Of a stretch of DNA of 9,933 nucleotides, positions 1 through 9,933 are shown in pieces. The notes below the pieces were generated by a model. It was not told where the DNA came from. It saw only the letters and a list, made by a program, of their open reading frames with translations, and did not search any database. Each line of letters opens with the position of its first letter. Positions within the stretch are counted from its first letter, which is position 1. A program made the position numbers and the translations under genes. This DNA is from a virus (lineage: Duplodnaviria; Heunggongvirae; Uroviricota; Caudoviricetes), in the IMG/VR virus record IMGVR_UViG_2634166457_000012, positions 1 to 9,933 of that record. One strand, given 5' to 3'.

Positions 1-385
1 AAATTTGATCCAGTAAGCACGGTTTTGGCCTTTTCGCCATTCTGTTGGCTCGGTTATTAGCATCAACAGCTTTGTAATAGCGTCTGCCCCGATTACGCTG
101 AACTTCACGTGAGATCGTCGAAGGACTGCGATTCAGCGCAGTAGCTATCGCACGAATGCTCATTTTGGCTGACAAACCAGCTCGTATCTCCTCGCGCTCA
201 GACAGTGTCAGGTGAGCTACAGCCCGCTTACGCTCATGGGGTTTTATGCCGCCAGTATCCCTTAACATAGTGAAGATCGTTCCGGGTTTTGAACCCAGGA
301 TATTCGCTATTTCACTGAAGCCTGTTCCGTTCTTCCATAGTTCAAAAACAGAGGCTTTTTCCTCTGCTGTAAATGTTCGTCTCAT
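1..385 (-). CDS. insI: IS30 transposase, N-terminal ~128 codons (C-terminus outside window)
   Basis: Minus-strand ATG at 385..383 preceded by GGAGG. Translation begins MRRTFTAEEKASVFELWKNGTGFSEIANILGSKPGTIFTMLRDTGG..., the helix-turn-helix N-terminus of IS30 transposase. Not in the ORF track because the frame runs off the window edge. Confidence 0.85.
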   Translation of the reverse strand, partial: MRRTFTAEEKASVFELWKNGTGFSEIANILGSKPGTIFTMLRDTGGIKPHERKRAVAHLTLSEREEIRAGLSAKMSIRAIATALNRSPSTISREVQRNRGRRYYKAVDANNRANRMAKRPKPCLLDQI

Positions 386-447
386 TCAAAAAACCTCCGC
401 AACCCCATGTTTTCACATAACTGTTGCGTTGACCAATTGAATCTACA
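1..447 (-). mobile_element. IS30 insertion sequence, partial (terminal inverted repeat plus 5' part of transposase gene; remainder lies beyond the window start)
   Basis: Reverse complement of 447..421 reads TGTAGATTCAATTGGTCAACGCAACAG, which I recognise as the IS30 terminal inverted repeat. It is followed by a GGAGG RBS and the transposase ATG. The element ends exactly where the gpD-like reading frame is broken (447/448). Confidence 0.88.
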
Positions 448-714
448 AGTGCCTTTTTCTGTCAGCGGTTCTCCTTTCCAGCCAATGAGAACCGTCAGGC
501 GCGCGCCCCGTGGCGGTAGCTGCAACTGACCATCCGCATCATCCAGCGTGATGGTGAGCTGGTCCGCCTCAAATCCTCGGTTGTCGGTCAGTGACAGGCT
601 CATCAGGCGCTCTGCCACGCCTGACAGCGTTTTACCCTCCGCAAGAATATCAAAATCCGGCATTTTCACGGGGTCTGTGCCCTGACTGAGCAATTGCATG
701 GTTGTGTCGGTCAT
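448..714 (-). pseudogene. D: P2 gpD-like tail/baseplate hub protein (late control gene D family), 5' fragment of ~89 codons truncated by IS30
   Basis: Minus-strand ATG at 714..712 with AGGGAGG RBS 6 nt upstream. Translation MTDTTMQLLSQGTDPVKMPDFDILAEGKTLSGVAERLMSLSLTDNRGFEADQLTITLDDADGQLQLPPRGARLTVLIGWKG carries the LTDNRGFEADQL-I-LDD motif typical of the phage gpD N-terminus. The frame reads into the IS30 end and stops at a TGA overlapping the transposase ATG. The track ORF 382..846 is this frame, over-extended upstream and read through into IS30. Confidence 0.6.
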
Positions 715-871
715 CTGTTCCCTCCCTGTGCGGCATGGTCGCATGTGCGTGCGGAGGGGGTTACTGCTTTTTGTTGTCGCCGTGGCGGGAGAATAGCGCA
801 GGGGTGAGATTACGCGCGTGGTGGGTGATGATTGTTGCTGAATCATTTAACGGATACAAGGGGCTGAAGCT
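715..871. promoter_or_regulatory. Divergent intergenic region between gpD-like (minus) and sheath FI (plus); presumed to carry promoters for both
   Basis: 157-bp non-coding gap between two divergently oriented starts, each with a good RBS. No confident -35/-10 pair and no P2 Ogr-type TGT-N12-ACA dyad found by eye. Confidence 0.3.
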
Positions 872-2056
872 ATGAGTGAAACTCGTTTTCATGGTGCCCG
901 TGTTACGGAAAATACCGACCTGGTAACAGCGATTAACGATGTTGATTCCAGCGTTATCGGTATCGTGGCAACGGCGGATGATGCGGACGCGAAGCTGTTC
1001 CCGCTGAACAAGCCCACACTGCTGACCCGCGTCAATGACGTGCTGGGAAAATGCGGGACAACGGGGACGCTTTATCGTGCGCTTAAGGCCATCGCAGACC
1101 AGGTGAGCACAAAGGTGATCGTCGTTCGCGTGGCTGAACACAAAGAAGAAGACGGAAAGACGCAGGATCAACTGGTTATCGGTGGTTCTGAGGATGATGG
1201 CAGCTATACGGGGATGTATGCGCTGCTTGTTGCAGAGCAGGATGAAAGCATCGGATACCGTCCGCGTATTCTGGCCGCGCCGGAGCTGGACACGGAGGCG
1301 GTGACAAAATCCCTGTGCGTGATTGCGGGTAAACTGCGCGCGTTTGTGTATGCCACATGTCATGGTTGTAACACGATGGCTGAGGCAATTACCTACCGCC
1401 AGAAATTCAACGAACGTGAGGTGATGCTCTTATGGCCGGACTTCATCGCCTACAACCCGAAAAGTGGCAAAAACGAAACGTTCCCCGCGCCTGCCTATGC
1501 GTGCGGCCTTCGTGCGTACATTGACCATGAGCAGGGCTGGCACAAATCACTGTCCAACGTTCCGGTTAAAAATGTGCTGGGGATGTCGAGGCATGTGTTC
1601 TGGTCGTTGCAGGCCGAAGACAGCGATGCCAACAGCCTCAATAATAAAGAAATCACGACCATTATTCGTCGCAACGGGTTCCGCTTCTGGGGCAACCGCA
1701 CACCGGAAACGAACGCCTACATCTTTGAGGTGTATACCCGAACCGCACAGGTGCTGGCTGATTCAATTGCGGAAGCGCAGTTTGAAACCATCGACAGTCC
1801 ACTGACGCCTGCGAATGTGAAGGATGTTATCAGTGCCATCAGGGCAAAACTGGATTCGCTGGTTACTGCCGGGAAACTGATTGGTGCGGAGTGCTGGTAT
1901 GACGTGGTGGATAACGGTACCACGAATTTACGTCAGGGACGTGTGCGTATTCGCTACAAATATACGCCTGTTCCCCCGCTGGAAGACATGGAGCTTTACC
2001 AGACGTTTACTGATGAATTCTTTGGTCCCGCATTTGCGGTGCTGGGAGGTGCCTGA
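872..2056 (+). CDS. FI: Contractile tail sheath protein (P2 gpFI family), 394 aa
   Basis: ATG 872 with AGGGG RBS ~8 nt upstream. Length and sequence character match myovirus sheath proteins of the P2 FI type (P2 FI is ~396 aa). Followed immediately by tube, chaperone, tape measure and gpU in the canonical order. Confidence 0.88.
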   Translation: MSETRFHGARVTENTDLVTAINDVDSSVIGIVATADDADAKLFPLNKPTLLTRVNDVLGKCGTTGTLYRALKAIADQVSTKVIVVRVAEHKEEDGKTQDQLVIGGSEDDGSYTGMYALLVAEQDESIGYRPRILAAPELDTEAVTKSLCVIAGKLRAFVYATCHGCNTMAEAITYRQKFNEREVMLLWPDFIAYNPKSGKNETFPAPAYACGLRAYIDHEQGWHKSLSNVPVKNVLGMSRHVFWSLQAEDSDANSLNNKEITTIIRRNGFRFWGNRTPETNAYIFEVYTRTAQVLADSIAEAQFETIDSPLTPANVKDVISAIRAKLDSLVTAGKLIGAECWYDVVDNGTTNLRQGRVRIRYKYTPVPPLEDMELYQTFTDEFFGPAFAVLGGA

Positions 2057-2568
2057 TGGCTGTACCAAAACATCTTCGCTTTTTTACGTTGTTTGTGGAT
2101 GGTGAAAACGAAGTGGGTAAAGTGACATCCGTCACGCCGCCCAAACTGACGCGCAAAACCGACAGCTATCGTGGTGGTGGCATGATGGGGGCGGTAAGTA
2201 TTGATCTCGGTCTGGACGACTCCGCGCTTGATGCGAGTTTTGTCATGGGGGGAGCTGTTCGTGCGCTGTTCCTTAAATATGGTGGCACGATTGACGGCAC
2301 GCTGCTGCGTTTTGCGGGTGAATACTACACCGATGCAGAAAGCGATCTGTATGAAATCGAGATGCGTGGGCGTGTGACGGAAATTGATATGGGGGAAGCC
2401 AAACAGGGCGAAGCCACATCACACACTTACGCTGTCAAAAACACCTACTACAAGCTGAGCGTTAACGATCGCCCGCTGTGGGAAATCGACCTGTTGAACC
2501 ACATCTACCGGAAGGACGGCAAGGACATTGTGCCTGACCGTATCCGTTCCGCGCTTGGGCTTGGCTGA
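2056..2568 (+). CDS. FII: Tail tube protein (P2 gpFII family), 170 aa
   Basis: ATG 2056 overlaps the FI stop (TGATG) and is preceded by GGGAGGTG. Size matches P2 FII (~172 aa) and it sits directly after the sheath gene. Confidence 0.88.
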   Translation: MAVPKHLRFFTLFVDGENEVGKVTSVTPPKLTRKTDSYRGGGMMGAVSIDLGLDDSALDASFVMGGAVRALFLKYGGTIDGTLLRFAGEYYTDAESDLYEIEMRGRVTEIDMGEAKQGEATSHTYAVKNTYYKLSVNDRPLWEIDLLNHIYRKDGKDIVPDRIRSALGLG

Positions 2569-2623
2569 TAAGTAATATGCAGGCGGCGCAGTGCGTCGCC
2601 TCTGACTGAAAAGGAGACAACTG

Positions 2624-2998
2624 ATGAAAGACATCGATACTGAAACCCGGAATAACACCGTGGCGGATGATGTGACGGCAGGTGAGGATATGGCTGTCGA
2701 ACGTGGCGTAAAACTGACCCGACCAATTGAGCGTGGTGGCGAAAAAATCACGTATGTGGAGATCACCGGGGCTATTGAGCAGGCTGGATCCCTGCGTGGT
2801 CTGTCGCTGTCTGATGTGCTGAATCTGAAAGCGGATACCATGTTCACGCTGTTGCCTCGCGTGACCTCGCCACGACTGGATGAAGTGATGATTAAAAAAA
2901 TGTCGTCACGCGATTTTATTCAGTTGTGCGCTGTGGCTGTAAATTTTATGAGCGAGCCAGACTCTGGCGCGAAGAGCGTGCAGGAGACGGCAGCGTAA
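2624..2998 (+). CDS. E: Tail assembly chaperone (P2 gpE-like), 124 aa, zero-frame product
   Basis: ATG 2624 with AAGGAG RBS at 2611..2616. Small acidic protein between tube and tape measure. Its 3' part is overlapped by a -1 frame ORF that runs to 3162, the hallmark of the E/E' (lambda G/GT-like) chaperone pair. Confidence 0.78.
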   Translation: MKDIDTETRNNTVADDVTAGEDMAVERGVKLTRPIERGGEKITYVEITGAIEQAGSLRGLSLSDVLNLKADTMFTLLPRVTSPRLDEVMIKKMSSRDFIQLCAVAVNFMSEPDSGAKSVQETAA

Positions 2999-3162
2999 TC
3001 ACCCTGGTGTGCTTTGAGCACATCGAAGATCTGGTGGCGGATATTGCCGCCATTTTTAACTGGTCGCCCGCCGAAATCTTCATGATGACGCCCGGCGAAG
3101 TGGTTAGCTGGCGTGAGCGGGCGGCACTTCGCAGCGGGAATGCAGACAATGAAGACTCTTGA
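2624..3162 (+). CDS. Tail assembly chaperone frameshift product E+E' (programmed -1 frameshift, predicted ~179 aa)
   Basis: The -1 frame is open from 2896 (after TAA at 2893..2895) to TGA at 3160..3162 and overlaps the last ~100 nt of E. A heptamer fitting X_XXY_YYZ in the E frame lies at 2941..2947. The E' stop overlaps the start of T. Confidence 0.55.
2941..2947 (+). other. Candidate -1 slippery heptamer A_AAT_TTT for the E/E' frameshift
   Basis: E-frame codons AAT(2942..2944) and TTT(2945..2947) preceded by A2941. A small hairpin GCCAG-ACT-CTGGC (2956..2968) lies 8 nt downstream. An alternative site is the A7 run at 2894..2900 (T_AAA_AAA), which is non-canonical. Confidence 0.4.
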
Positions 3163-5956
3163 CATCCGGGTCGCTTTCAGCGCCGTTGACAGGCTGACCC
3201 GGCCTGCCGAAAACGCCCGCCGCCTGATGGGGCAGTTTGGTGACTCCATCCAGCGAACGCAGGGGGCGATCAAAAATCTCGAGCGTCAGGCGCGTTCATT
3301 TGAGCGCGCCCGTGACGCTGTCAGTAAAGCGGATGCTGGCGTATTGAAAGCACGACGCCAGCTTAACGCCCTTAATCAGTTACAACGCACGGGTACAGTG
3401 CTCAGCGAAAAACAACAAAAGCTGATGCAGCAGTTAAGCACCCGGCTTGAACGCCTGAATGAATCGCGCACACGGGAAATTCAGAAAATGCGGGAACTTG
3501 GCGGAGAGCTGAAACGCCACGGCATTTCCCTGACAGGCAGCGATAACACCATCCAGCAGGCCATCAGACGCACCGAACAGTACAACAACCAGCTTGAACG
3601 CGAACGGCAGGCGCTTGCGCGTGTAACGCGGGCGCGTGAGCGGTATTCGCGCGCGCAGGAAACAGAGGGAAAACTGAAAACAGGTGGTGCACTGGCAATT
3701 GGTGCGGCAGCGGCGGGCGGCTATGCTGCCGGGCGTTTTTTGCAGCCTGCGATCGGGTTCGGCAAAGAGATGTCCTGCGTTCAGGCACTGACGCGAATCG
3801 ACAAAAACAGCCCGCAGTTTAAGGCGCTGCGTGAGCAGGCGTTAAAACTTGGCTCTGAAACACAGTTTACTGCGAGTGATGCCGCCAGTGGGCAGAGCTT
3901 TCTGGCAATGGCTGGTTTTACTCCTCAGGCCATTCAGGCCGCATTGCCCGGTGTTCTTAATATGGCGCTGGCAGGTGGCGTCGAACTCGGCGAGACGGCT
4001 GATATAGGCTCCAATATCCTCACACAGTTCAACCTGACAGCCGATCAAATGGACCGGGTTGGCGATACGCTGACAGCAGCATTCACCCGGACCAATACTG
4101 ATTTACGCGCGCTGGGCGAAACCATGAAGTATACCGGTCCGGTTGCCGCAAAACTTGGTATCAGTCTTGAAGAAGCGGCGGCCATGGCCGGGATGCTTGC
4201 CAATAATGGTCTTCGCGGAAGCGATGCGGGTACGGCCATGCGCGCAAGTCTGTCCCGCCTTGCATCACCGCCAAAAGCTGCGGCTGATGCACTGAAAGAG
4301 CTGGGGGTGTCAGTTGCTGACGCCAGAGGCAAAATGCGCCCAATGGAGGATGTGCTGCTTGATCTCTATAAGGCGACACAAAAATACGGACAGGTGGACC
4401 AGGTCTCCTTCTTCAAGGACATCGCCGGAGAAGAGGCGTTCGTTGGTTTGCAGACGCTTGTTGCGGCGGCTGGTTCAGGAGAACTGCAAAAACTGACCAG
4501 AGAATTGCAGGGGGCAAGGGGAGAGGCCGATCGCGTTGCAAAAGTAATGGCCGATAATCTTGATGGGGACCTGAAAAATCTCGACAGCGCATGGGAAGGT
4601 CTTCGTATTCGCATCAGTGATCTGGTTGACGGTCCGCTGCGTTCTGTCACGCAGTGGCTCACGCGGGTGCTTGAAAAAATCACCTCGCTGGCGCAGGCCC
4701 ATCCGGTACTGACGCGCCAGCTACTGATAGCAGGCGGTGCGTTGCTGGCAATGACTGCAACGATTGGCTCGTTGTCGCTGGTTATTGGGGTGCTTTACGG
4801 GAAGCTGGCCACCCTGCGTCTTGGTTTTGACATTCTTACCCGGTCAATGAATGTCGTCAGGGTGTTGCCTGCGCTGTGGGGAATGGTGACGGGTTCCGTT
4901 TCTTTACTGGGGGGCGCTATCGGGGCGTTGTTCAGTCCGGTTGGTCTTATTGTGGCTGCGCTCGCCGGAGCTGCCGTTCTCATCTGGAAATACTGGGATC
5001 CCATCAGGGCATTTTTTGCCGGGGTGTTCAGCGGGATTATGGAAAGGCTGACCCCGTTGCGCGAAACCTTTGAACGGTTTGGTCCTGTTTTTGACGCAAT
5101 CGGAAGCGGGATCAGCCAGGTGTTTAACTGGTTTAAATCGCTGCTGTCACCGATGGAGTCCAGCAAGGAAACGCTGGATAAATGTACCAGTGCTGGCGAG
5201 ATATTCGGTAACGTTCTTGGCGGTGCGTTACAGCTTGTTCTGACACCTGCAAAAATGTTGCTGGATACGCTGGCGTGGATACTTGAAAAGCTCGGTGTGC
5301 TTCCGGATGAAGCGGAAAGGGCGCGCAAGAAAATCGAAGACGCACAGCGTGCGGCCATTCTTCAGGATAAGGTTGCCTTGCTTCAGGGGGACCTGGCGAA
5401 AATCAATCCGCCGAAGCCTGTGGAAAATGGCAATGGTACCGGAGGTGATAAGCCCAAAGACAACAAACCGCTCACAGACAGCAATACCGGTACGCTACGC
5501 AGACTCAGCAAAATTGCTGATAACACAGGTAAGCTGGTTGATGAGACGAAAAAACGCATTGGCCCCGGCGATATTGTCTTTAAGAACCTGCCCCGCGCAC
5601 TTGCTGTTCGTGGGGAGTGGCAGGAGCGGAAGATTGCGCAGGTCAGTAAGCCTGCCCCCGCAATTAATATCACACCCGTGGTTCCGGCTCCGCTGTCTCC
5701 AGCGCTGGTCCCTGTTGTTGCGGCCAGCTCCCGCCCGGTGGCGGAGGCCATACGATCGCCAGTGGCATCAGTTCCTGCAACTTCCCGTAACCGGGAGCCT
5801 GTTGCCTCCGGATTTGGCGGTGAAATTCATGTTCATCTGCATAACGTTGTTACGCAGAATCCCCGCGAACTGGCGAAACTGGTCGGTGAAATGGTCAGGG
5901 CAGAATTGGAACGACGCGACCGTGCCGGACGTGGCAGTTTTTACGATAAAGATTGA
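3149..5956 (+). CDS. T: Tail tape measure protein (P2 gpT-like), ~935 aa
   Basis: Long ORF directly after E/E'. N-terminal third is coiled-coil-like and rich in R/E/Q/L. The middle has Gly/Ala-rich hydrophobic segments (e.g. LLIAGGALLAMTATIGSLSLVIGVLYG and GAIGALFSPVGLIVAALAGAAVLIW) typical of tape measure proteins. Start chosen at ATG 3149 (GGGA ~9 nt upstream); in-frame alternatives are ATG 3140 and GTG 3113 (the track start). Confidence 0.85.
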   Translation: MKTLDIRVAFSAVDRLTRPAENARRLMGQFGDSIQRTQGAIKNLERQARSFERARDAVSKADAGVLKARRQLNALNQLQRTGTVLSEKQQKLMQQLSTRLERLNESRTREIQKMRELGGELKRHGISLTGSDNTIQQAIRRTEQYNNQLERERQALARVTRARERYSRAQETEGKLKTGGALAIGAAAAGGYAAGRFLQPAIGFGKEMSCVQALTRIDKNSPQFKALREQALKLGSETQFTASDAASGQSFLAMAGFTPQAIQAALPGVLNMALAGGVELGETADIGSNILTQFNLTADQMDRVGDTLTAAFTRTNTDLRALGETMKYTGPVAAKLGISLEEAAAMAGMLANNGLRGSDAGTAMRASLSRLASPPKAAADALKELGVSVADARGKMRPMEDVLLDLYKATQKYGQVDQVSFFKDIAGEEAFVGLQTLVAAAGSGELQKLTRELQGARGEADRVAKVMADNLDGDLKNLDSAWEGLRIRISDLVDGPLRSVTQWLTRVLEKITSLAQAHPVLTRQLLIAGGALLAMTATIGSLSLVIGVLYGKLATLRLGFDILTRSMNVVRVLPALWGMVTGSVSLLGGAIGALFSPVGLIVAALAGAAVLIWKYWDPIRAFFAGVFSGIMERLTPLRETFERFGPVFDAIGSGISQVFNWFKSLLSPMESSKETLDKCTSAGEIFGNVLGGALQLVLTPAKMLLDTLAWILEKLGVLPDEAERARKKIEDAQRAAILQDKVALLQGDLAKINPPKPVENGNGTGGDKPKDNKPLTDSNTGTLRRLSKIADNTGKLVDETKKRIGPGDIVFKNLPRALAVRGEWQERKIAQVSKPAPAINITPVVPAPLSPALVPVVAASSRPVAEAIRSPVASVPATSRNREPVASGFGGEIHVHLHNVVTQNPRELAKLVGEMVRAELERRDRAGRGSFYDKD

Positions 5957-5962
5957 GGAGTC

Positions 5963-6457
5963 ATGGCCATGATGATGATCTACGGCATGTTTGTTTTTGA
6001 GTTGCGCACGTTGCCGCATCAGCAGTTACAGCAAAACAAAAGCTGGCGACATGTGAAAAATGAACGCGTTAACCGTTCGGCAAGCTGGCAGTATATCGGT
6101 GCAGGTGATGATCGCATCGTTCTTTCGGGTGTTCTTTATCCTGAGATTACAGGTGGCGAAGTGTCGCTGTCGTTGTTGACCACGCAGGCATATACAGGAC
6201 GCCCCTGGCCTCTGATTGATGGCGTCGGGCAGATTTACGGCATGTATGTACTGACTGAAACGAATACGACCCGCTCCGAGTTTGATCGCTACGGTAAGGC
6301 GAAAAAGATAGAATTTTCACTGACTCTTGAACGCTGTGATGAGGATTTGCGGGAGCGCCTGCAATCCTCATCGTTCAGCGATATGTTGTCCGGCTTCAAA
6401 GATAAGGTGACATCATCCCTTAACAGCGCGGCCAGCTCAGTTAAGGGGCTGCTCTGA
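5963..6457 (+). CDS. U: Tail protein gpU-like (P2 U family), ~162-164 aa
   Basis: Follows the tape measure by 6 nt. Size matches P2 gpU (~159 aa). GAGGAG at 5955..5960 is best spaced for the in-frame ATGs at 5969/5972, so the true start may be 6-9 nt downstream of the track start 5963. Confidence 0.8.
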   Translation: MAMMMIYGMFVFELRTLPHQQLQQNKSWRHVKNERVNRSASWQYIGAGDDRIVLSGVLYPEITGGEVSLSLLTTQAYTGRPWPLIDGVGQIYGMYVLTETNTTRSEFDRYGKAKKIEFSLTLERCDEDLRERLQSSSFSDMLSGFKDKVTSSLNSAASSVKGLL

Positions 6458-6467
6458 TTTAACGTAT

Positions 6468-6500
6468 GTCGCCAATTTCCTGATGAAGGTGACTGGCGAC
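6468..6500 (+). other. Inverted repeat GTCGCCA-N19-TGGCGAC just downstream of the gpU stop; possible weak terminator or processing hairpin
   Basis: Perfect 7-bp arms at 6468..6474 and 6494..6500, followed by TTGCTGTTGT. The long loop and poor U-tract make an intrinsic-terminator call weak. Confidence 0.25.
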
Positions 6501-6533
6501 TTGCTGTTGTATGTCCTTCTCAGAAAATTGTTT

Positions 6534-6562
6534 TTGAATAACAAATAACAGGATTTTATAAT
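6534..6562 (+). promoter_or_regulatory. Near-consensus sigma70 promoter for the acetyltransferase moron
   Basis: TTGAAT (6534..6539), 17-nt spacer, TATAAT (6557..6562). Predicted transcript start ~6569, about 45 nt upstream of the GTG start, in an AT-rich non-coding stretch. Confidence 0.55.
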
Positions 6563-6613
6563 CTCTTAACCTTATAACATGTGTGGTCTGAAATAATAAT
6601 TAAGGAGATTTTC

Positions 6614-7186
6614 GTGCTGTCTTACTTAATGGCAATTCACTTTGTTTTATTTGGGAACTCTACTAATTTAAAAAACTTCTGGAAACATGAAGTGATTCGG
6701 CGGAAACGTATGGATATCTGGAGGCTTTTAAGAGAGAAAAAGCAGCGTAACCGGAATTTCCTGTTCTGGTGGCGGTTGGCTAACGAAATGTATATTAATG
6801 GTAATAAATCACATAAGAAAGCAGCCAAAAAGTTAAACAGTAAAATAATTAACAAATTTGGTTGTGAAATAGGATTGGGAGCAAATATTGGAAAAGGGTT
6901 AACAATTCCCCATCATGCTGGAATTGTTGTTCATTTTGCTGTTGATGCGGGTGAAAATCTGGTATTACGACAGAATACTACCATTGGACAGATAGATGGT
7001 GACATGCCTGGTTCAAGAGTGAAAATTGGTAGTAACGTTGATATCGGAGCTAATTGTTGCATCATTGGATTATCACGTAAAATTGGGGATAATGTAAAAA
7101 TAGGTGCAATGTCTTTTATAAATAAAGATATACCATCAAACTGCACATATATAACTAAAAAGAGTGGTGTTGTATTGTATAAATAG
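6614..7186 (+). CDS. Hexapeptide-repeat (left-handed beta-helix) acetyltransferase, serine O-acetyltransferase (CysE/WcaB/NeuO-like) family; ~190 aa; AT-rich moron
   Basis: Translation contains the SAT-family signature GCEIGLGANIGKGLTIPHHAGIVVHFAVDAGENLVLRQNTTIG followed by further hexapeptide repeats (VKIGSNVDIGANCCIIG, KIGDNVKIGAMSFINKDIP). Start assigned to GTG 6614 because AAGGAG (6602..6607) lies 6 nt upstream; the track ATG 6581 has no RBS. Followed by a strong terminator. Confidence 0.72.
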   Translation: MLSYLMAIHFVLFGNSTNLKNFWKHEVIRRKRMDIWRLLREKKQRNRNFLFWWRLANEMYINGNKSHKKAAKKLNSKIINKFGCEIGLGANIGKGLTIPHHAGIVVHFAVDAGENLVLRQNTTIGQIDGDMPGSRVKIGSNVDIGANCCIIGLSRKIGDNVKIGAMSFINKDIPSNCTYITKKSGVVLYK

Positions 7187-7193
7187 AGTACAT

Positions 7194-7230
7194 AAAGCCA
7201 TCGATATTTCTGTCGATGGCTTTTTCTTTT
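7194..7230. terminator. Rho-independent terminator, shared by the convergent acetyltransferase (plus) and tfa (minus) transcripts
   Basis: Perfect stem AGCCATCGA (7196..7204) / TCGATGGCT (7213..7221) with 8-nt loop, then TTTTTCTTTT (7221..7230) on the plus strand. On the minus strand the same stem follows the tfa stop but has only a short U-tract (UUUAUG). Confidence 0.8.
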
Positions 7231-7808
7231 TATTGTGGGGCGACTGGCCACTCAACATCCGCTGCTACTGTTGTATCAACACGATTCAACAATACCCTAT
7301 ATGTCTTCCATGCAGCCAGTAACGATGCCTCTTCCTCCGTCGCAATATCCAAATCTACGGCATCCTGAAGTGGCGCAATATGCTCACTGGCTACCTGCAT
7401 CAGGCTGTTTTTTGTTTCTTCTGCCTCCCGTACCCGAAACAGTTTTTCTGCTTCTGCATCTTTCACCCAGGATGTGCCGTTCCACTTCTGACACTCTCCA
7501 TCCGGCGACAACCAGGTAACATTTTCCGGTAACGGACCGAGTTCAGAAATAAATAACGCGTCCCCTGATGCCACGTCATAAACCGTTTTACCCCGATGGT
7601 CTTCAACGAGATGCCACGATGCCTCATCACTGTTGAAAACAGCCACGAAGCCTGCCGGAATATCTGGTGGTGCAATATCGGTACTGTTTGCAGGCAGACC
7701 TGTATGAGGTGGAATGTATGCATCACCTTCCCCAATAAATTCATTAGTTCCGGCCAGCAGGTTATAAATTTTTATGGTCCGTGATTGTTCACTCATTCTG
7801 AAATCCAT
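7230..7808 (-). CDS. tfa: Tail fibre assembly protein (lambda Tfa / P2 gpG family), ~192 aa
   Basis: Translation ([97 protein letters not shown]...) is near-identical to phage lambda Tfa as I recall it. ATG 7808 with GAGGTG 5 nt upstream; the track start GTG 7814 is less likely. Confidence 0.9.
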
Positions 7809-7816
7809 GTTCACCT

Positions 7817-8719
7817 CTACTTAATATCAGAGACAGAATATTGTTTATTGAGCGTATGGGTGGGAGTACCAATAACGATGCTACTTCCGTGGCTATGTGC
7901 GCCAGAGGTGACATTACCTACGGGATTTTCTGGATTAATCCGGTGTATATGCGAACCAGGGCGAAAACGGTTATTAGCCTGATGTTGTATCAGTACATCA
8001 TCAGCCTGATGTTCAGGGTTAATACAGACTTGCCCGGAACGAGAGCAACACGTCCGATAATCGCCACATCCAATATATTTAGTATCCGCATAACGGCAAA
8101 CGGAATTACCCGGACAGTATGCATATGTGCCAAATACTGCCGACTGGCGAGATTGTGCGTATTCCCAGTTAATTGATTCTGTTTTTTTATTAAAGTTATC
8201 CCATGCCTGCTTCATCTGTCGGGCAACACTTTCAAACGGCACCTGACCACATCCGGCCCCCATTGCAGGGAATACCACTGTTTTTATTTTCATGTCTGTC
8301 GTTGCGTTTTTATTGTGTTGAAAGATGGCAAGCAGAGCGGCCCAGGTTGCGTTATATACAGCGTCTGTTCCGTCAATTGTCAACGGAACACGCATTGTTG
8401 GCGCATGTACCAGCCAGGGGTGATGATTATGCCCCGTTTCAATGACAAATGCAGAACCTACAGGCTGTTCGCCGAGATATTCACGAAGAATATGATTCTG
8501 AACGCGGGACTGTAACTGAGTACCGAAGAATGCGGTAATGGCGGCATCAACGCCACCATCCATCAAGCCGAAACTATTTGCCGCACTTACCATGCAGTCA
8601 AATTCTCTGATTGTTTCAAATGGCTTTCCGACAATATTCACACTATCTGCATTTGCAAATACCTGCTTAAATGCTTCAGCCATTTCTGTTACTGGTGCAG
8701 AAAGAATGAGCGTAATCAT
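7817..8719 (-). CDS. Macro-domain protein (predicted ADP-ribose-binding / ADP-ribosyl hydrolase) with Cys/His-rich C-terminal extension, 300 aa
   Basis: N-terminal ~180 aa carry macro-domain motifs in the correct order: [26 protein letters not shown] (compare VNAAN..L.GGGGVDGAIHRAAG), [25 protein letters not shown], and [22 protein letters not shown] (compare FPAISTGVYGYP). ATG 8719..8717 overlaps the stf stop (ATGA) with GAGG 5 nt upstream. Stop TAG 7819..7817 lies 8 nt before the tfa ATG. Coding call is strong; the functional call is from motif recognition only. Confidence 0.7.
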
Positions 8720-9933
8720 GCAAGCCTCACAATATAGTTAAATGCGATGTTTTTTACGGTGTTTTCTGCGTTACCCGTAGCGTTAACGGTGATGGTATGC
8801 CCGTGTGAACCTATCGCAACGGAGTGTGTGTGTGCGCCAATATTTACTGTGTGAGAGTGCCCCCCTGCGTTACTTGTTTTTCCAGTGCCAAGCCCTGAGT
8901 TATAACCAGCCGAAACACCATTACCAGCGCCAGTGTTGCCAACAGGAATATTGTGTGAATGATCCCCGGCGCTATTCGTGGTTTTAGTGCCATGGTTAAA
9001 TGAACTGGACGTCTTGGTGCCGTAGTCAAATGATGATGTGGTTTTTGTCCCCAAGTCCGTACTGGACGCGCTGGCACTGTGGGAGTGTGATTTAATGCCG
9101 TCCTGTTCCTGAGATAATACGGCCCGACCACTGGCGGGTTTGCCCTTAATCGTCCAGCCACGCATATCAGGGATCACACCAGACGGATAAGCGACTGCAA
9201 GCAGGGGGTAGACTGTTTTATCAAAAGTCTGCCCCTGCATAACGGTGTAGCCTGTAGGCACTGAATCAGAAGGCCACGGTATCGCCGCACCTACCGGAAA
9301 TGAATCTTGTGGCGTCCATGGTGTCCAGTCACCCGTTGAGTACTGGCTGCGGGTATAGCTTCTGGATGTGTCATACACATAGTAAATCTGTGTTATCCCG
9401 GCATTTTTAAGCACAACCAGTGTACCCGCAAAATTCTCCGGGTATTTCAGCGCTGCGCTTGTATTGGCATTCAATGGCTGATGGTACAGCCCCGGTGTTT
9501 TGTAATTATCCAGATTCTGATTTGCACCAATCTCAATACTCTGGCCGTTAAAAATATCCTGCGATGTAACATTGACATCATTGGCTAGTGATTTGCCATT
9601 AACCTTACGTCCAGAGGGCACACGCCCGTTTGCATTGTCATTAGCGGCTTTCACCGCTTTCGGAGTCGCGGCAAGCGTTTCAGAATCACTGTTAGTGACG
9701 CTACTGAGCTGGACTATTCCTTTTCGTGCCGTCGTGGCGTCCTGTGCGGTATATTTCCCGTTAGCAAGGTCATAGGCTGCCTTTACCGCCTTTGGTGTTG
9801 CCGCCAGCGTTTCTGAATCGCTGTTGGTGGCGCTACTGAGCTGGACTATTCCTTTTCGTGCCGTCGTGGCGTCCTGAGCGGTATATTTCCCGTTAGCAAG
9901 GTCATATGTTGCCTTTACCGCCTTTGGTGTTGC
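8716..9933 (-). CDS. stf: Side tail fibre protein (lambda Stf-like), C-terminal ~405 codons; N-terminus lies beyond the window end
   Basis: Frame is open to the window edge with no start codon. Contains 44-aa tandem repeats [34 protein letters not shown](A/V)TNSDSETLA characteristic of enterobacterial phage tail fibres. The His-rich C-terminus [28 protein letters not shown]...[11 protein letters not shown] matches the lambda Stf tip. The track ORF 8716..9654 is the same frame cut at an internal GTG. Confidence 0.9.
9655..9933 (-). repeat. Tandem direct repeats, period 132 bp (44 codons), at least 2 copies in window, within the stf coding region
   Basis: GCTACTGAGCTGGACTATTCC occurs at 9700 and again at 9832; GCCTTTACCGCCTTTGGTGTTGC at 9779 and 9911. 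Copies are near-identical over ~90 bp, and the copy nearest the C-terminal part is diverged at one end. Confidence 0.85.

Follow-up and report, generated by a model that had tools for sequence, protein, structure and literature searches.

Layout of the late region

The window, i.e. the whole stretch of 9,933 nucleotides that was analysed (IMG/VR record IMGVR_UViG_2634166457_000012), coincides with one end of scaffold KQ241477.1 (assembly GCA_001186315.2); over all 9,933 positions there are 0 mismatches. The scaffold ends inside an IS30 element at window position 1; the other end of the window lies at an N gap in the repetitive tail-fibre gene H. The features at the IS30 side and in the adjoining tail operon are as follows.

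1..447, minus strand: left portion of IS30 (447 nt), comprising the left terminal repeat, a 62-nt leader and 128 transposase codons; the scaffold ends here
378..447, minus strand: predicted hairpin (fold prediction) in RNA that enters IS30 from outside
382..385, minus strand: ATGA overlap between the stop of the fusion ORF (TGA, 384–382) and the transposase start (ATG, 385–383), from translation
382..714, minus strand: fusion ORF of 110 aa, with 89 D codons, 21 codons of the IS30 leader and TGA, from translation
421..447, minus strand: left terminal inverted repeat of IS30 (IRL), TGTAGATTCAATTGGTCAACGCAACAG, identical to the IRL of full-length 1221-bp copies
448..449, no strand: dinucleotide AG of the target site (CT as read on the D strand); of the 2-bp duplication, this copy is the one visible
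448..714, minus strand: D', the N-terminal 89 codons of the gene for the baseplate hub gpD
715..871, no strand: divergent D/FI spacer of 157 bp, 154/157 identical to that of Escherichia phage P88_4B11, presumed home of both late promoters
872..6457, plus strand: intact tail operon FI–U, with Pfam matches
872–2056, plus strand: FI, sheath, 394 aa
2056–2568, plus strand: FII, tube, 170 aa
2624–2998, plus strand: E, 124 aa
3007–3162, plus strand: E', 51 aa
3149–5956, plus strand: T, tape measure, 935 aa
5969–6457, plus strand: U, 162 aa

The initial annotation had described FI–U as intact, and all six lengths equal those of the intact operon of P88_4B11 and of many prophages. Gene D faces FI divergently, as it does in P88_4B11 and in many uninterrupted prophages at several chromosomal sites, whereas in P2 it is colinear, follows U and closes the FI–U operon. 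Inversion of FI–U relative to D, followed by ogr, is the gene order of the genus Xuanwuvirus and was found here. An origin of the divergent arrangement by IS30-mediated inversion was considered and rejected, the order being native to Xuanwuvirus and common to uninterrupted prophages.

Further on, KQ241477.1 carries G, a macro-domain gene, H, I, J, W, V, S, R, lysis genes and X, as well as an M/L call, part of O and a terminase gene, interrupted by N gaps only. The stretch from terminase and scaffold (gpO) to FI is present bar two such gaps, one of them at the place where the capsid gene is expected. Within the visible sequence D::IS30 is the sole lesion of the late region. A truncation of H was likewise considered and rejected, as the right end of the window is an N gap inside the H repeats. 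H itself (window 9650-9933, minus strand; L021, 8632-10000) consists of tandem repeats of ~44 aa, and the gap in the scaffold comprises 1,369 N.

The junction between D' and IS30

The outer tip of IRL lies at 447 and adjoins codon 89 of D in the window sequence. A ribosome-binding site, GGGAGGG, precedes the ATG of the D frame at 714–712, from which exactly 89 codons extend to 448. The frame then continues through 21 IS30-derived codons, CRFNWSTQQLCENMGLRRFFE, to TGA 384–382. The transposase starts at ATG 385–383 and is followed through 128 N-terminal codons (MRRTFTAEEK…), with IS30 running to window position 1. The initial annotation had noted a terminal repeat abutting the D frame after ~89 codons, ~22 codons of D frame inside IS30, a TGA overlapping the transposase ATG, and co-orientation of D and transposase; the sequence agrees on each point (IRL 447→421, D frame 714→448; 21 codons plus TGA; ATGA at 385–382; both genes on the minus strand). 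Among the three frames that lead into IS30, only that of D' terminates at the start codon of the transposase; three stops close the transposase frame upstream, and the third frame stops 12 codons beyond the ATG.

Four NCBI assemblies contain calls of an identical 110-aa fusion ORF, and the window-type junction is also present in the complete genome MEI003. An artefact of assembly might be suspected in a draft scaffold with N gaps, the last bases of which differ from other IS30 copies; recurrence of the same junction in a complete genome and three further assemblies makes this hardly credible.

IS30 has a length of 1221 bp, one long transposase ORF (383 aa) and imperfect terminal inverted repeats of 26 bp. 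The copy of MEI003 at the window-type junction conforms to this, with 1221 bp, an ORF of 1152 nt and ends that pair at 23/26 positions (12+5+6), and PGAP labels it 'IS30-like element IS30 family transposase'. In the window, the one visible end (447→421) equals the IRL of full copies, and the N-terminal 128-codon fragment of the transposase contains the helix-turn-helix DNA-binding domain HTH_38 (PF13936, E 6.5e-26 in Pfam). The NCBIfam IS30 model begins at residue 89 of the fragment, which leaves the score below its cut-off. Compared with 30 other IS30 copies, the 447 nt differ at window position 3 only. The IS30 of E. coli K-12 shares terminal repeat, leader and transposase N-terminus with the window (at most one difference in 447 nt), which contains only the left 447 nt of the element.

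At the extreme end of the scaffold (window 1-5), CAAATTT stands in place of the CAAAATTT of the 30 other copies, so that the A-run has a length of 3 instead of 4. A run of 3 would shift the transposase frame near codon 127; an assembly-end artefact is more likely.

Identity of gene D

According to the initial annotation the truncated frame was gpD-like and should be compared with databases. All of its residues (89/89) match the N-terminus of the 'Gene D protein' of Escherichia phage P88_4B11 (genus Xuanwuvirus). The 89-aa fragment alone also matches PHROG 52 'tail protein' (E 5e-32) and phrog_4456 (E 5e-47), and has no match in Pfam or NCBIfam; Pfam is silent because its GPD model, PF05954, covers residues 91–349. 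The complete gene was rebuilt from MEI003 by taking out IS30 and one copy of the duplication. The rebuilt gene is an open frame of 1110 nt and 369 codons, which passes PF05954 'Phage tail baseplate hub (GPD)' with 62.7 bits against a cut-off of 30.1 over residues 91–349. Its product shares 98.9% identity with P88_4B11 D and 48% with P2 gpD, and matches the R2 pyocin chain 6u5h_C with E 9e-41. The gpD of P2 and P88, the R-type pyocin hub (6u5h chain C) and the N-terminal fold of T4 gp27/VgrG are thus its kin. These matches identify the 89-codon fragment as gene D, of which the window encodes residues 1–89 only.

In many uninterrupted relatives PGAP splits the intact 369-codon D (e.g. L003, 11158-12267) into a 266-aa 'VgrG/Pvc8 family' protein and a partial 'hypothetical protein' on the opposite strand. 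The intact gene looks broken because of this annotation alone, and a reading of the split in L003 as an insertion scar was rejected, the frame being complete with 369 codons.

State of the insertion in the window and its relatives

Since the scaffold breaks off within the element, the window shows a single IS30 end and a single AG copy (448–449). In uninterrupted relatives the site reads …CAACAATGTA-AG-TGCCTTTTTC…, with a single AG inside the open 369-codon frame. Under a simple insertion, the D 3' part beyond IS30 is expected on the D strand as CT + TACATTGTTGATGAAATC…, and the far junction as …GATTGAATCTACA|CTTACATTGTTGATG…, leading into D 3' and ogr, where the sequence next to GATTGAATCTACA is CTTACATTGTTGATGAAATC.

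Two relatives with the window-type junction are readable across the element. MEI003 possesses an IS30 of exactly 1221 bp with AG on both sides, followed by the remainder of D, cargo genes, ogr and hok. GL884529.1 contains the identical 110-aa fusion ORF and CT|IS30|CT on the D strand, then D 3'; the length of its IS30 is spanned by an N gap. AG likewise stands on both sides of the element in O114:H49 (see below). The far IS30 end, the 2-bp duplication and the 3' portion of D, which the initial annotation had proposed to look for, were consequently found in MEI003 and GL884529.1, and a loss of the D remainder, named there as evidence of a rearrangement, is seen in neither. Truncation of the gpD-like baseplate gene by IS30, the central claim of that annotation, agrees with both sides of the comparison: 89 codons of D' followed by IS30 in the window, and a 369-codon gene in relatives.

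MEI003 and GL884529.1 are simple insertions; judging from these relatives, the same state would apply to the window's own genome. The junction could instead be the edge of a larger IS30-associated rearrangement in that genome, with no D 3' beyond it. Such an event would accord with a scaffold ending in IS30, with the later decay of the same junction in O157:H7, with IS30 copies elsewhere that have no matching duplications and point to recombination between copies, and with the occurrence of the same fusion ORF in a heavily deleted remnant (L007). It is nonetheless considered unlikely, since both readable relatives are simple insertions and the late region of the scaffold itself is present from terminase/gpO to FI bar the two N gaps. 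The IS30 insertion also accounts for the break of the draft assembly at this position.

In the L007 remnant (1706-3560), from an assembly that encodes the same fusion ORF, integrase and repressor immediately adjoin an incomplete G, and only G'-acetyltransferase-U-T-E-FII-FI-D'::IS30 is retained; here the tail operon has outlived the remainder of the prophage.

Recurrence and orientation among E. coli genomes

Junction-specific queries of 200 bp were compared with 5,426 complete E. coli genomes, with the following counts.

Window type (IS30 left repeat beside D'): 1 genome (MEI003)
Flipped type (right repeat beside D'): 257 genomes, including O157:H7, ETEC H10407 and O114:H49
Uninterrupted site: 1,108 genomes

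The site is accordingly occupied in ~19% (258/1,366) of the complete E. coli genomes that carry it, and four IMG/VR contigs also contain the flipped form. In the P88-like remnants of O157:H7, ETEC H10407 and O114:H49, IS30 is inserted at exactly the same AG of D as in the window. In contrast to the window, the right repeat lies beside D' in these alleles, D' reads through 18 other codons, and the ATGA overlap is absent. The O114:H49 allele is a simple insertion with a matching AG duplication and D 3' kept, and ETEC H10407 possesses a full IS30 together with the D 3' ORF. In O157:H7 an IS3-family element later entered the flipped IS30 and divided it, and D 3', ogr and hok have disappeared. Secondary rearrangement does therefore occur at the D::IS30 locus. 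In O157:H7 strain TR01 (L002, 6539-9026), only ~25+ nt of D 3' are left beside the IS30 left repeat.

A literature search on IS30 in gene D found no paper; RefSeq already annotates the allele of the relatives as a pseudogene beside an IS30 transposase.

The target site in gene D

IS30 copies were gathered from two public collections and their flanks extracted. The half-site common to the other targets is roughly ATTAAAAAAGGC(A/T)-NN; the D flank reads GACAGAAAAAGGCA-CT. An empirical target matrix was built here without the D site from ~15 effectively independent half-sites and is accordingly crude. According to this matrix the D site ranks 5th among ~29,000 positions in P88_4B11, and 8th and 6th among ~33,000 in two prophage loci; it is clearly among the best IS30 targets in the phage. 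As with hot-spot insertions of IS30 such as LHS in phage lambda (PMC9333248), the half-site of the D target matches that of other IS30 targets. Neither the hot-spot consensus of IS30 ('GOHS') nor the P30A promoter was found in a literature search.

The high matrix rank and the occupation in both orientations correspond to the known preference of IS30 for hot spots, and the D site is a hot spot struck at least twice. Published hot spots are nearly palindromic and associated with 2-bp duplications (PMC9333248), so that use in both orientations would be unsurprising. The terminal repeats have only 12 identical outer bases in common, and each junction type carries an unmixed IRL or IRR; two independent insertions at one dinucleotide are therefore the economical reading.

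A single ancestral insertion that was inverted in place would leave the identical dinucleotide and AG duplication in both orientations, as observed. This is very improbable: the 12 identical outer bases are too few for homologous inversion, IRL and IRR are unmixed at both junction types, a SNP in D' of the window type is absent from the one flipped (O157) and two uninterrupted sequences that were aligned, and the site scores as a top IS30 target of a kind whose published examples are nearly palindromic.

Several full IS30 copies in other loci (L028, L029, L030, L037, L045, L046 and L049) have differing dinucleotides on their two sides, and their flanks combine halves of other insertion sites. 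Such mismatched flanks indicate recombination between copies or insertion beside earlier copies.

Transcription and translation into IS30

The initial annotation had pointed out that read-through from the D promoter could drive the transposase. No sigma-70 promoter was identified on the D strand of the spacer in a promoter scan, and no terminator-like site was found between D' and the transposase in a scan of that interval. The spacer contains one TGT-N12-ACA dyad with one mismatch (775–792), a weak, non-significant site of the Ogr type, and matches to this dyad in the window (59, with 52 expected) show no enrichment. The D promoter is probably late and activator-dependent, and would then be silent in the lysogen.

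For RNA that runs into IS30 from outside, a fold-back at the left end of the element is predicted. In the predicted hairpin (IS30 nt 1–70; -19.7 kcal/mol, z -3.66, 0/200 shuffles as stable) the outer IRL pairs with the transposase SD (GGAGG, 398–394) and the AUG region, and the structure is lost without the first 27 nt of IS30. According to this model, read-through RNA from outside would sequester the SD and AUG of the transposase. The transposase mRNAs of IS10 and IS50 are protected against outside transcription by such a fold-back. As in these elements, the pairing in IS30 would exist only in transcripts begun outside the element, with the difference that the IS30 hairpin is a prediction. 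A search of the literature retrieved no paper describing fold-back protection for IS30. A stop codon overlapping a start (ATGA) is the classic geometry of termination and reinitiation, and ribosomes translating D' would open the predicted hairpin, so that coupling is conceivable as a speculation. Antisense RNA limits IS30 translation (PMC9330008), and strong expression is known only from the promoter of the IR–IR junction (PMC9330008, PMC8450116, PMC9333248). Activation of the transposase by read-through from the D promoter is thus possible, opposed by the predicted hairpin and the antisense control.

The insertion might be functionally exploited in this manner: translation of D' from the late promoter, followed by reinitiation at ATGA, would turn the transposase on at prophage induction. 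D' and transposase are co-oriented with no terminator-like site found between them, the fusion ORF stops on the transposase ATG, and its ribosomes would melt the predicted hairpin. We regard this as quite unlikely. The promoter scans identified none for D, which would be silent in the lysogen if Ogr-dependent, while the predicted hairpin argues for an IS30 built to resist outside transcription. Published work adds the antisense limitation and strong expression from the junction promoter only. Moreover, the frame match has a chance of 1 in 3, and 257/258 complete genomes with an insertion at this site have it in the other orientation, in which coupling cannot occur.

A wider reading joins several of these elements: a strong natural hot spot in D hit independently both ways, a transposase burst that late induction could trigger, and loss of the hub possibly selected in the course of domestication. 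In this combination it appears decidedly improbable. If true, ribosomes translating D' would cross the IS30 fold-back and stop on the transposase AUG in the orientation and frame of the window only.

Consequences for the phage

The preferred reading, to which we assign a probability of roughly 0.88, is an ordinary IS30 insertion at a hot spot in gene D of a P88-like prophage, by which the tail is very probably disabled. IS30 would have been pasted by its normal reaction into gene D of this Xuanwuvirus prophage of the P2 family, between codons 89 and 90 of a gp27/VgrG-like baseplate hub, at a natural hot spot and with duplication of the dinucleotide AG. The expected product is a D'–IS30 fusion peptide of 110 aa, in which a stub of 89 residues is followed by 21 unrelated ones and ~3/4 of the hub are missing. 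D is an essential tail gene in P2, whose D mutants make no tails, and in the baseplate structures of pyocin and T4 the hub nucleates the baseplate. From P2 genetics and these structures it follows that tail assembly should fail unless D is supplied from elsewhere, e.g. by another prophage; a second P2-like prophage could complement the defect. The phage tail is hence very probably disabled, and P2 genetics suggest that the prophage is cryptic, as the initial annotation had proposed. FI–U is untouched, being a separate divergent unit, and no polar effect on it is expected because D forms its own transcription unit.

As a form of prophage decay the event is ordinary and already recognisable. Repeated use of the hot spot in either orientation, the divergent layout native to the genus and the fold-back prediction are tidy additions, which hold no surprise in view of what is known of IS30. 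The significance beyond annotation is accordingly small, with the population picture as a modest extra. This P88-like prophage has a disrupted hub gene and should be scored as tail-defective. Across E. coli, O157:H7 and ETEC H10407 among them, IS30 has repeatedly targeted one dinucleotide of D, which may serve as a handy marker; it also provides an example of an IS target preference that repeatedly disables one phage function.

Cargo genes and further features

Between U and G lies an AT-rich slot (window 6458-7229) with 34.5% GC, compared to ~54% for FI-U. It contains a gene (6614-7186, plus strand) for an acetyltransferase of the hexapeptide type (phrog_2154), which carries the annotation serine O-acetyltransferase. 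In relatives the slot is occupied by a DNA invertase and alternative fibre segments, or by a glycosyltransferase-9-like gene, and this differing content marks it as a point of cargo exchange. A macro-domain protein of 300 aa (window 7817-8719, minus strand; PF01661, E 1e-18) is encoded between H and G, overlaps the stop of H and is present in some relatives only. Its PHROG matches are phrog_2613 (unknown function) and a 'tail protein' family, and its Cys-rich C-terminal third has no Pfam match. PADLOC yielded zero matches for the macro-domain and acetyltransferase genes.

The interval beside D and ogr possesses a different cargo set in almost every relative, usually located between the two genes (L001, 5150-6733; L004, 7829-10947; L014, 5178-8575; L016, 7473-8642; L010, 7903-8481; L009, 6931-7716; L017, 7849-8607; L005, 12317-13456). 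The cargo includes a GmrSD nuclease, a GapS6a system, an HxsD/radical-SAM set, DUF3800, an HD hydrolase, an abhydrolase and a SEC-C protein; in L009 an N6/N4 methylase is present just past ogr and hok. The interval resembles the defence-gene hot spot known from P2-like phages.

Finally, the Rfam family IS009 (RF02111) matches the window at 7267-7465 (minus strand, 191 bits), wholly within the coding sequence of the tail-fibre assembly gene G. The RF02111 'RNA family' coincides here with a conserved phage coding segment.
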